Below are positions 29,723 through 33,545 of a stretch of DNA of 64,000 bases, piece after piece (the first letter of the stretch is position 1; each line of letters starts with the position of its first letter). The stretch lies in assembly GCA_934140155.1 (NCBI GenBank), contig CAKPBC010000001.1, positions 589,009-653,008 of the forward strand. The letters are read 5' to 3'. Source of the DNA: an uncultured Bacilli bacterium (GTDB lineage: Bacteria; Bacillota_I; Bacilli_A; RFN20; CAG-826). The notes under the pieces are model-generated. The model did not search any database. It was given only the letters and a program-made list of their open reading frames with translations, and was not told the origin of the DNA. Position numbers and translations under genes: made by a program.

Positions 29723-29793
29723 ATTGCTCATATTTATTGCTCACTTTTATTGATTTATTGCTCACTTTTTGATATTATAAAGGTGAGCAATAA
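29721..29793 (+). promoter_or_regulatory. promoter with array of TTATTGCTCA(C) boxes (3 direct + 1 inverted), a putative autoregulatory operator
   Basis: Boxes at 29721-29730, 29734-29744 and 29755-29765 (direct) and 29783-29793 (inverted, GTGAGCAATAA). Putative -35 TTGATT (29750-29755), 17-nt spacer, -10 TATTAT (29773-29778). Box 3 lies in the spacer; the inverted box lies between -10 and the RBS. Confidence 0.45.
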
Positions 29794-29806
29794 AGGAGAT
29801 ACTCTT

Positions 29807-31207
29807 ATGGATATAGAATTTTTTAAAGAACTTATTCAGTATGAATATGAAAAAGAATGGATTGAGTTTAAAGAAAATTGGTATAACAGAGAAGAAATAG
29901 GAGAGTACATTTCGGCGTTATCGAATGTTGCAACTATTTGTGGTGTACCATACTCTTATATGATATGGGGCATAAAAGATAAAACGCATGAAGTAATAGG
30001 AACATCATTTAATTTTGATAAAGAAGAAAAAGGTGAGTCTTTAAAACATTACCTATCTAGAAACTTAACGCCTTCTATTTTATATACTTTTGAAGAACTT
30101 GAATATTTAGAAAAAAGAGTTGTTATTTTAACAATATCAGCAGCCAAATTGGTTCCAACAGAGTTTAATAAAGAAAGATTTATAAGAATAGGATCTAGTA
30201 AAGAACAATTAAGAAAATTCCCTATTATTGAAGCATCATTATGGGAAAAACTTAGAAAAGTTAATGATTCCATTTTAAATCACGAAGCTCCAAGACAAGA
30301 TTTAACTTTTAATAAACTTCTCCTTTATTACATGACAAAAGACTTACCTTTAAAAACAAATACTTTTAAAGAAGATTTATTCTTTTATGTACCTAATACT
30401 AAAAAATATAATCTCTTAGCGTATTTAATGGCAGATAAGAATAATGTAATTATGCGAGTATCTGTCTTTGAAGGAACAAAGAAGTCAGATAACCTTTATT
30501 CAATTAAAGAATTTGGAAATCAATGCATAATTTATACAATCGATCAAGTCCTTGAATACTGTAATATCATTAATGTGATGCAAAATGATGAATCTAATAG
30601 AGTTGTAGAAAGAAAAGAAATTCCTCTTTTTGATTCTAAAGCTTTAAGAGAAGCAATTCTTAATGCATTTATTCATAATGATTGGTTAGACTTAAATGCT
30701 CCGATGGTTTCTGTTTTTAATGATAGAATTGATATATTATCATATGGAACACTTCCTAATGGGCAGACTATTGAAGGATTTTATGCCGGAAAAAGTAAGC
30801 CGAGATGTAGGGAACTTTCTGATATATTCTTGCAATTAAGAATTAGTGAAAGATCTGGCCGAGGTGTTAATAAAATAGTGGATGTTTATGGCAAAGATGC
30901 ATTTACTTTCGGACAAGATTATATAAAAGTGTCGATTAAATACAACCGCCTTCTTGCTCACAAATCAAAAAAACGTGAGCAAGAAAGTGAGCAAGAAAAA
31001 AATAAAAAAATAAGTAAACCTCAGTTAAATATGAATAGAATTGTTTCCGAAATGCGAAATAATCCTAGTGTTACTACGATAGAATTAATAAATATTTTAG
31101 GATTAAAAAAGACATCAATTCAAAAATATATTCGTATATTACAAGAAAACGGAGTAGTTAAACGTGTTGGTGCAAATAAAAACGGATATTGGGATGTTTT
31201 AAAATAA
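29807..31207 (+). CDS. AlbA_2 (Schlafen-type) domain / HATPase_c_4 / C-terminal winged-HTH protein ('RecG-like ATP-binding transcriptional regulator' family)
   Basis: 466 aa from ATG 29807 (AAAGGAG RBS). N-terminal E.EWIEFKENW AlbA_2 signature, ISERSGRGVNKI HATPase_c_4-type motif, C-terminal TTIELINILGLKKTSIQKYIRILQENGVVKRVG wHTH. Confidence 0.75.
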   Translation: MDIEFFKELIQYEYEKEWIEFKENWYNREEIGEYISALSNVATICGVPYSYMIWGIKDKTHEVIGTSFNFDKEEKGESLKHYLSRNLTPSILYTFEELEYLEKRVVILTISAAKLVPTEFNKERFIRIGSSKEQLRKFPIIEASLWEKLRKVNDSILNHEAPRQDLTFNKLLLYYMTKDLPLKTNTFKEDLFFYVPNTKKYNLLAYLMADKNNVIMRVSVFEGTKKSDNLYSIKEFGNQCIIYTIDQVLEYCNIINVMQNDESNRVVERKEIPLFDSKALREAILNAFIHNDWLDLNAPMVSVFNDRIDILSYGTLPNGQTIEGFYAGKSKPRCRELSDIFLQLRISERSGRGVNKIVDVYGKDAFTFGQDYIKVSIKYNRLLAHKSKKREQESEQEKNKKISKPQLNMNRIVSEMRNNPSVTTIELINILGLKKTSIQKYIRILQENGVVKRVGANKNGYWDVLK

Positions 31208-31621: not shown

Positions 31622-31684
31622 AAAATAGGAGAGATAAGAAAATGGAAAAAATAATAAAACAAACAATTGAATATGAAAATTATA
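31580..31684 (+). repeat. copy 2 of the segmental duplication (intact version, leads into the 31642 CDS)
   Basis: See 31166-31256. The offset between copies is 414 bp. Confidence 0.8.
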
Positions 31685-32103
31685 AACAAAGCTTTTTTAT
31701 AATGATTGGAATGTTTTGTGTTTTAACTATATTATTTACTATACCTTTTTTGACTTTATATTTTACTAAATCTGATAATAGATATTTGATTGCTTTTATA
31801 GTGTTTATGGCACTTAATATTATAATTTGTTTACCATTCATAATATACAATATATATCGCATGCATTTTATTACGCAAATGGGAAAGAAAATGAAGATAA
31901 CTGAAGTGGAACTAAATAATTCAAATTCAGGAGTTTATGGATTAATGCGCTTTTATATTAATATTCCTAATTCTAATGGGAAAATTAAAGAAAAGAAAAG
32001 TTTATGTACAATGCGTGGAAGTCTTTTTAATCGGTATCAAAATAAAAAAGTAAAAATTTGTTATTTAGATAATTATGAATATTTCTTTATTGTCAAAGAA
32101 TAA
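31642..32103 (+). CDS. two-TM membrane protein with C-terminal soluble domain, function unknown
   Basis: 153 aa from ATG 31642 (AGGAGAG RBS). The ORF-track start at 31603 reads through the pseudogene stop region. Confidence 0.6.
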   Translation: MEKIIKQTIEYENYKQSFFIMIGMFCVLTILFTIPFLTLYFTKSDNRYLIAFIVFMALNIIICLPFIIYNIYRMHFITQMGKKMKITEVELNNSNSGVYGLMRFYINIPNSNGKIKEKKSLCTMRGSLFNRYQNKKVKICYLDNYEYFFIVKE

Positions 32104-32208
32104 ATATAACATCATTATTTAGGTGTAAGTCTCTAATGAAAATTGGAGATTTTTTGATGACACTTTAAAATATGTACAATGTTCAAAAATATGTTGACAA
32201 AAATCGTC

Positions 32209-32219
32209 GGGGGGGGGGG
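32209..32219 (+). repeat. G11 homopolymer (candidate slipped-strand contingency tract)
   Basis: 11 consecutive G in a strongly AT-rich sequence. Lies between TTGACA (32194-32199) and TATGAT (32220-32225), 29 nt upstream of the ATG at 32248. Confidence 0.9.
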
Positions 32220-32247
32220 TATGATATATGAGAAAAGAGGTTTTTAT

Positions 32248-32784
32248 ATGAAAAAAGAAAAAAGTTTAAAGGCACTAAGCATTAAGGCTGTAGTCTTTAG
32301 TGCAATTGTTGCGGCTTTCGCGTTGTTTTGTGATCCGCTAAGTCTAACATTTAACATTTTTAGAGGAGATAAAGTAATATTTAACTTTTTTACAATTGCA
32401 GTGCCAAGATATGACTATGCGCCAGAAGATATTGCATTACTATATTATGGGGCAAATGTCATTATCGTTTTACTAGTTGTTGCTACACTTGTTTTAAGTA
32501 TTTTAGCTTTATTAAATCAAAAAGGTAAGATGGTAAATGCCACTAACGGAATTACTAAAGCATTAAAAATTGTTTCAAAACTTGCATTTGGTTTAGGCGC
32601 TTTCCTTGCTAACATTGTTAATGTTGCTTTAGGTTTTATTACTTGTGGTGGAAATGGTGTTGTTACCCTTATTATTTATTTCGTTATTCTTATTTTAGCA
32701 TCAATTATGAATACAACATGTAAGAATTACGCAAATAGAATTCTTCCAGCTAAACAAAATAAAGCAGTTGCTGAAAATAAATAA
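32248..32784 (+). CDS. polytopic membrane protein (about 4 TM), function unknown
   Basis: 178 aa from ATG 32248 (AAGAGG RBS). The ORF-track start at 32179 would add 23 aa, including GGGG encoded by the G-tract. Confidence 0.6.
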   Translation: MKKEKSLKALSIKAVVFSAIVAAFALFCDPLSLTFNIFRGDKVIFNFFTIAVPRYDYAPEDIALLYYGANVIIVLLVVATLVLSILALLNQKGKMVNATNGITKALKIVSKLAFGLGAFLANIVNVALGFITCGGNGVVTLIIYFVILILASIMNTTCKNYANRILPAKQNKAVAENK

Positions 32785-32818: not shown

Positions 32819-33256
32819 ATGAAAAACAAATTTTTTATTGCCGTTGCTATGATGGCTTGTGCTTTACCATTAGTTTCTTGTGGTAATTCAAATGGAAAAC
32901 AATACTATGAAACTGCAATTAAGCATGTTAAAAATGATTTATTGGAGCGTTCTAAATCGTGGGACTTCCAATATTCTAATGCTGAAGTTTGTGAACAAAC
33001 TTTTAAAAGCGGAAATAAGACTATTGCTGTAGAATTCGATTATATTATTAAATATGAGGATATAAGTTTTGATTCAAAAAAAGAATTTGAAGGTACTTGT
33101 TATTTCATCATGTCTGATTATGATAAGACCACAAAAACTTTCAATAGTGTAAAATGCTCACAATGTTCTTATTATTTGACAAATGGTGATGACGGACTTA
33201 GATATACATATGCTTCTACAAAGGCATACGGGAAAGTAATTTATACACAAGATTAA
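32819..33256 (+). CDS. small lipoprotein, function unknown
   Basis: Signal peptide with lipobox LPLVS-C (MKNKFFIAVAMMACALPLVSCGNS). AGAGGA RBS. Confidence 0.7.
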   Translation: MKNKFFIAVAMMACALPLVSCGNSNGKQYYETAIKHVKNDLLERSKSWDFQYSNAEVCEQTFKSGNKTIAVEFDYIIKYEDISFDSKKEFEGTCYFIMSDYDKTTKTFNSVKCSQCSYYLTNGDDGLRYTYASTKAYGKVIYTQD

Positions 33257-33283: not shown

Positions 33284-33315
33284 GCTTTCAAGATTGATTG
33301 CTTGAAGGCTTTTTT
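33284..33315 (+). terminator. rho-independent terminator
   Basis: GCTTTCAAG / CTTGAAGGC 9-bp stem (one G-U), 8-nt loop, T6. Confidence 0.6.
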
Positions 33316-33545
33316 AATTTTTAATAGAAGATAGGCAATAACTAATTAGAGATAAAAATATAAAGATTATAAATTAACTTAGTTGTATTGCAAATTAGTC
33401 GATGCATCTCTAAATATTGGAAATTTGTAATATTTAATGCTATATTAAGTATGGTTATTAAACTAGAGGATAAAATTAATATTGATAGTTAATTTTAAAT
33501 TTATTATCAACATATTTTATCCAAAAGCAAAGGAGACAAACGATT

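Follow-up and report, generated by a model that had tools for sequence, protein, structure and literature searches.

An isolated G tract within a putative promoter

The locus described here raises the question of whether a homopolymeric G tract, which divides the putative promoter of two genes in an uncultured gut commensal, could act as an expression switch for the proteins that these genes encode. We analysed a 64-kb stretch of DNA (hereafter the window) with a GC content of 29.9%, and re-reading of the coordinates placed the tract, G11, exactly at positions 32209–32219 of the + strand, directly 5′ of a TATGAT hexamer. The window contains 7500, 1535, 151, 26 and 2 G runs of one, two, three, four and five residues, respectively, and beyond these lengths only the single run of 11, while the longest C run is five, so that the tract is the sole G or C run of more than five residues in the 64 kb. 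Runs of at least 11 G are expected at a frequency of 2.4e-4 per window if bases are independent and 2.7e-4 under a first-order Markov model. At G11 in the window, and G9–G12 in other samples, the tract is of a length (about eight or more G/C) at which homopolymers are hypermutable. No second tract is present in the window, and these 64 kb thus give no hint that further genes are switched by repeats.

A perfect match to the −35 consensus, TTGACA (6/6; 32194–32199, + strand), lies 10 nt before the tract and is unchanged in all 16 of the alleles described below. The + strand of the window has just nine copies of this hexamer, and its position beside the tract is therefore unlikely to be due to chance. 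It is followed by the 5′ part of the spacer, read from the sequence as AAAATCGTC (32200–32208, + strand), then by the tract itself, and then by a candidate −10 hexamer, TATGAT (5/6; 32220–32225, + strand), from which the tract is separated by an extra T in six alleles. The distance between TTGACA and TATGAT in the window is 20 nt. The original prediction had described the 11-G run as an outlier in AT-rich DNA, lying exactly between these two hexamers with a 20-nt spacer, and both the run counts and the coordinates bear this out.

On its 5′ side the promoter region is bounded by a terminator-like hairpin and U-run at the end of the upstream gene, which encodes a 153-aa protein (hairpin at 32127–32155, + strand). 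The stem has 11 bp and is closed by a GAAA loop, the U-run is UUUUUU, and the 62-nt fold that contains it has a minimum free energy (MFE) of −14.5 kcal/mol (z = −2.6), with pairing preserved despite substitutions in four other loci (L006, L010, L032 and L033; U-G to C-G and A-U to G-U). Because the two-gene operon is bounded upstream by this terminator, its promoter must lie within 32157–32247. We scored every −35/−10 pair in this interval against the consensus, allowing spacers of 14 to 23 nt, and TTGACA-20-TATGAT (11/12) was the sole pair to reach at least 10/12, with the runner-up scoring 9/12 at a spacer of 22 nt. From these features we infer that TTGACA/TATGAT is the promoter in use, although the leader that such a split promoter predicts is only about 15 nt long, which counts against it.

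An Rfam search gave no match near the G tract. Two further readings of the region were considered and rejected. The spacer, composed of AAAATCGTC plus Gn, has no inverted repeat or dyad of the kind expected of a MerR-type long-spacer promoter (19–20 bp), and a pyrG-style start of reiterative transcription within the tract would depend on a poor upstream promoter, in which AAAAAT has no −35 and no pair does better than 9/12 (spacer 22 nt).

The downstream operon is predicted to encode two envelope proteins

A Shine-Dalgarno motif, GAGG (32237–32240, + strand), is located 7 nt before ATG 32248, which opens a reading frame for a 178-aa polytopic membrane protein of a lineage-restricted orphan family (32248–32784, + strand), with about four helices predicted. 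After a gap of 34 nt this is followed by an ORF for a 145-aa lipoprotein found in this species only (32819–33256, + strand), which carries a signal peptide with the lipobox LVSC, and the two-gene operon is closed by an intrinsic terminator (33284–33317, + strand) formed of a 9-bp stem, GCTTTCAAG/CTTGAAGGC, and then TTTTTT. The local genes are all on the + strand. A protein with four transmembrane segments and a lipoprotein had been proposed at these same positions, and on the features given above both products are predicted to be envelope (surface) proteins.

Searches with the membrane protein returned nothing above the curated cut-off in Pfam, where the only hit was S1FA (E 0.0055; 17.3 bits, cut-off 21), and no match in NCBIfam. 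Likewise, the lipoprotein had no match in Pfam and only weak sub-threshold matches in NCBIfam (E 0.007–0.09), and neither protein matched PHROGs or PADLOC. A word-indexed protein search yielded seven clusters for the membrane protein and one for the lipoprotein, with the homologues of the latter confined to this species, while an exhaustive profile search across 1.84 billion representatives picked up three proteins, all of which belong to the small family of the membrane protein itself. No paralogues of either gene were found in the protein searches, and AlphaFold2 models of the two proteins were poor (pLDDT 45 and 51). The membrane-protein gene is nevertheless intact in 12/12 distinct alleles and the lipoprotein gene in 10/10, and dN/dS is mostly about 0.15–0.4 for the former and, across both genes, mostly about 0.15–0.5 in the most divergent pairs, with one pair at about 0.7. 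The low dN/dS and the intact alleles together indicate that the operon genes are maintained by purifying selection.

Tract length varies between otherwise identical sequences

Using exact protein-identity look-ups and one metagenome DNA scan, the latter of which contributed one extra locus, we recovered 16 independent contigs that span the tract, with the window counted among them. A scan of species-representative genomes gave one match, a metagenome-assembled genome (MAG) from a Hadza gut metagenome in which the contig breaks at the tract, and the remaining carrier contigs were assembled from metagenomes, one or more of which are labelled human gut. Across the 16 alleles we detected G9 three times, G10 seven times, G11 three times, G12 twice and an interrupted form, G5TG5, once, bearing in mind that consensus lengths of long G runs in contigs may include assembly error.

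When the T residues that follow the tract are also counted, the spacer is 19 nt in eight alleles (G10 plus T in L002, L019, L026, L031 and L034; G9 plus TT in L003, L006 and L020), 20 nt in five (G11 plus T in the window and L010; G10 plus TT in L005 and L033; G5TG5 plus T in L032), 21 nt in two (G12 plus T in L001; G11 plus TT in L017) and 22 nt in one (G12 plus TT in L004). A G-to-T change at the 3′ end of the tract conserves length, and the alternation between T and TT thus says nothing about whether the total length of the spacer is under selection.

Tract length also differs where the surrounding DNA does not. Over 6439 bp the window differs from L002 by 0 mismatches, and their sole indel is the tract, which is G11 in the former and G10 in the latter. 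The flanks of L003 and L005 are identical over 1345 nt, yet the tracts are G9 and G10, respectively, and five loci (L001, L003, L005, L006 and L010) that share the same 1000 nt downstream have tracts ranging from G9 to G12. The surrounding 7.5 kb also contains eight A7/T7 runs, which served as a control and were invariant in all of the 6–19 loci that cover them. The tract is hypermutable, changing in length at a much higher rate than the flanking DNA changes in sequence. A comparison of tract length among strains had been put forward as a check on the original prediction, and its outcome is a set of G9–G12 differences that extends to otherwise identical sequences.

The interrupted allele in L032 reads GGGGGTGGGGG (L032:560–600) and has a 20-nt spacer, whereas the tract is uninterrupted in the other strains. 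G5TG5 should be much less mutable than a continuous run and is a candidate for a 'locked' spacer of 20 nt.

A candidate spacer switch and a neutral alternative

On balance, we favour the view that the tract functions as a promoter-spacer expression switch, or rheostat, for two lineage-restricted surface proteins. Slipped-strand mispairing at the tract would add or remove G residues and so alter the distance between TTGACA and TATGAT in a sigma-A-type promoter of the two-gene operon, and the altered spacing would in turn lead to a heritable and reversible change in the amount of both envelope proteins in each lineage. Three parts of this reading are inferred, namely the control of expression by the spacing, the reversibility of switching within a population and its adaptive value.

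The spacer optimum of sigma-70/sigma-A promoters is 17 ± 1 nt, and spacers of 19–22 nt are expected to be weak. None of the 16 alleles has an optimal spacer of 17–18 nt, the range being 19–22 nt with a mode of 19 nt, and the observed alleles are predicted to run from weak (19 nt) to off (20–22 nt). Since every observed spacer is over-long, the behaviour envisaged is that of a low-level rheostat, in which 19 nt, the shortest and commonest spacing, would be the most active state observed and 20–22 nt would be progressively off. A fully ON state would be rare and would need a spacer of 17–18 nt, provided by G8–G9, or by G7–G8 with the extra T; as no such allele occurs among the 16, this state is hypothetical. 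The 19-nt mode (8/16) fits either selection for the most active state available or a population in which expression is mostly low. Of the switch as first proposed, the hypermutable tract, the only strong −35/−10 pair and the envelope genes downstream are all retained, but the predicted ON lengths, G8–G9 in the TATGAT background (17–18 nt), are absent from 16/16 alleles, all of which have spacers of 19–22 nt.

The best-surviving alternative is a neutral mutational hot spot, in which the tract slips often and expression of the operon is independent of its length, the reason being either that a −10 with a G at −14 works without a −35 or that there is little transcription of the operon in any case. 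It would account for the non-optimal spacing of all 16 alleles and the lack of an ON allele among them, for the interrupted and presumably stabilised allele of L032, and for the presence of one tract only in the window. However, a perfect TTGACA 10 nt 5′ of the sole long G run is unlikely to have arisen by chance, and the genome does not appear to tolerate such runs freely, given that those of more than five are otherwise absent. Furthermore, genes under purifying selection need a promoter, and the intergenic region holds no other good one. We therefore regard neutral slippage as unlikely, though it is the alternative to be taken most seriously.

Contig breaks at the tract

In addition to the 16 spanning contigs, about 12 further contigs (L007–9, L014, L022–25 and L027–30) end in the tract or within about 75 nt of it, or have an N gap there. 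L008 begins at GGGTATGAT, L028 stops at TCGTCGG, the tract of L022 is replaced by Ns, and L014, the contig of the GTDB representative, begins 5 nt past it. These breaks are compatible with mixed tract lengths in the reads or with poor read-through. There is a practical side to this, since many assemblies of the species, that of the GTDB representative MAG among them, are interrupted at the tract, which also misleads gene callers.

The breaks bear on a second alternative, namely that the tract is real but has a single true length, with Illumina errors after long G runs causing both the apparent lengths and the breaks. Homopolymer lengths are indeed error-prone, and poor read quality alone could explain many contigs breaking at this point. 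However, the range of 9–12 is wide and comes from several studies with at least three assembler naming styles, the linked substitutions (T versus TT, and G5TG5) represent real diversity at the site, and the A7/T7 control runs did not vary. An origin of the length differences in sequencing error is, on this evidence, very improbable.

One contig behaves differently at its end. L023 (L023:2050–2094; sample ERZ28615125) can be followed along the locus to TTGACAAAA, after which it continues into an unrelated sequence, CACGAAATTACTGATATACTTCTACTTGTCGCT, up to the contig end. CACGAAATTACTGATATACTTCTACTTGTCGCT is absent from the window and from every other locus, and either a chimera at the end of the contig or a rearrangement of the promoter may explain it. 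ERZ28615125 also yields L008, the contig that starts inside the tract.

Leader and start codon

A third alternative places transcription initiation further upstream, for example at TACAAT (32176–32181), a hexamer 28 nt upstream of the tract, such that the tract would lie in the 5′ UTR and affect mRNA structure, stability or translation. TACAAT has no usable −35, though, as the best available is TTGATG with a 15-nt spacer, which overlaps the U-run of the upstream terminator, and the hexamer reads TACAGT in 5/16 alleles. An extended −10 promoter at this site, TGTACAAT, had been offered as an alternative in the original prediction and is weak for the same reasons, together with a mis-spaced TG: because the TG abuts TACAAT, it sits at −14/−13 and not at −15/−14, where an extended −10 would require it. 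Likewise, predicted folds of the leader with tracts of G7–G13 showed no length-dependent occlusion of the Shine-Dalgarno motif or start codon (MFE −7.1 to −9.1 kcal/mol). A role for the tract within the 5′ UTR thus seems highly unlikely.

The start codon of the membrane protein is ATG 32248, as judged from the Shine-Dalgarno motif and from the N-terminus, MKKEKS, which is common to the orthologues; in sister species these have an identical MKKEKS start preceded by GGAGG. The tract ends 28 nt before this ATG and is hence non-coding, and since it lies 5′ of the real start codon any effect that it has would be transcriptional and not frame-shifting. Gene calls in public assemblies instead take ATG 32221, which is part of the −10 hexamer, as the start of a 187-aa protein, and the call in L032 begins still further upstream, giving 208 aa.

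Translational switching, in which initiation at ATG 32179 (or 32191) would add MFKNMLTKIVGGGG as an N-terminal extension and the tract would set the frame of the membrane protein, is extremely unlikely: ATG 32179 is in frame through GGGG in the window allele, as had been pointed out originally, opening a 201-aa ORF, and one gene caller did extend the L032 ORF upstream, but neither 32179 nor 32191 is preceded by a Shine-Dalgarno motif while ATG 32248 has a strong one, orthologues without a tract share the MKKEKS start, and a hand count found only 4/16 alleles in frame, while the downstream start would be used whatever the frame.

Relation to known phase-variable promoters

A promoter-spacer switch of the kind favoured here belongs to a known mechanism class. 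Most known examples of promoters switched by repeats come from mycoplasmas and from pathogens of mucosal surfaces. In Mycoplasma hyorhinis, whose genus is a low-GC relative of the Bacilli, the length of a homopolymer in the promoter spacer controls the vlp lipoprotein genes, and the present locus is similar in having a homopolymer in the putative promoter spacer upstream of a lipoprotein gene. However, the vlp tract is poly-A, and the vlp genes are a family of many members that encode repetitive, variable lipoproteins; the present tract is poly-G and precedes a single operon. Variation of homopolymer tracts is reportedly documented in Bordetella pertussis as well, where a poly-C tract in the fim2 and fim3 promoters sets the spacing between an upstream element and the −10, with BvgA binding upstream. 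These resemble the present case, with its putative promoter, in combining a C/G homopolymer in the promoter with genes for surface structures, but the fim promoters depend on BvgA as an activator, and no activator is indicated at the G-tract promoter.

The closest resemblance is to porA of Neisseria meningitidis, in which a tract of G9–G11 between the −35 and −10 gives graded expression, with surface expression high at 11G, about 2-fold lower at 10G and 6-13-fold lower at 9G (PMC3639595). Both porA and the locus studied here, at its candidate hexamers, have a G homopolymer of 9–12 residues between the −35 and −10 of a surface-protein gene, with length variation among isolates; opc, with a poly-C tract, is a further example. 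However, in porA the common allele is optimal and shorter tracts reduce expression, while here all alleles lie beyond the optimum, at 19–22 nt. Furthermore, porA belongs to a proteobacterial pathogen, whereas the present host is a Gram-positive-type uncultured gut commensal, and the putative targets are unrelated orphans.

In those parts of the literature that our search covered, the repeat-promoter mechanism class is well known, with the usual pathogen examples, and the catalogues of phase variation in gut bacteria consist almost wholly of invertible promoters, mostly in Bacteroidales. New here are the unstudied commensal host and the unusual feature that the spacers of all alleles exceed the optimum. 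If the proposed switch is real, it would extend repeat-driven promoter switching to a new group, represented by an uncultured commensal in which the switch is polymorphic across people's metagenomes, and it would be among the first phase-variable promoters of the SSR type (as opposed to the inverton type) to be described from a Firmicute commensal of the gut. Two anonymous envelope proteins would thereby be marked as likely objects of fluctuating selection, exerted for instance by phage, antibody or niche, and it would follow that public metagenome assemblies are sufficient for discovering and genotyping switches of this kind.

Sister species and genomic neighbourhood

Orthologues of the membrane protein from sister species (L011–L013, L015 and L016) share 60–65% amino acid identity with it, and the G tract is absent from all five of these loci. 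Their promoter is TTGACA-17-TAATAT, about 100 nt 5′ of the ATG, with TAAGAT as the −10 in one. As the sister species have a well-spaced promoter and no tract, the tract appears to be recent and specific to this species. A newly born species-specific switch, in which an ancestral TTGACA-17-TAATAT gave way to a promoter split by a growing G tract and acting as a rheostat at spacings above the optimum, is a conceivable origin, although we would stop short of calling it probable.

The genes that follow the orthologue also differ among sister species. In L013 the orthologue is truncated to 105 aa (L013:3001–3320) and the next gene encodes a 658-aa lipoprotein (MCMKKIYLALFLSLLTLSSC...; L013:3362–5338), while in L011 and L012 a full-length orthologue is followed by a 576-aa non-lipoprotein. 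This difference in the next gene shows that the downstream partner is not conserved.

Upstream of the operon, the 153-aa membrane protein (31642–32103, + strand) has two N-terminal transmembrane segments and matched PycTM (PADLOC, E 0.004) and PgaD (NCBIfam, E 0.005) weakly; both matches probably reflect transmembrane composition. In the window and in L002 a gene for an AlbA_2/Schlafen-type regulator follows tRNA-Pro (29750–31207), whereas L001 and L034 are without it and the gene for PolC directly precedes that for the 153-aa protein. The presence or absence of the AlbA_2/Schlafen-type gene places the operon at the edge of a strain-variable region. Further differences were observed in two other loci. 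L005 has no tRNA_edit gene and a shortened LytTR gene (L005:2375–3172), and in L007, past the flavin-reductase gene, DUF4250 and DUF2207 genes replace the tRNA_edit, LytTR and kinase genes (L007:1931–3967).
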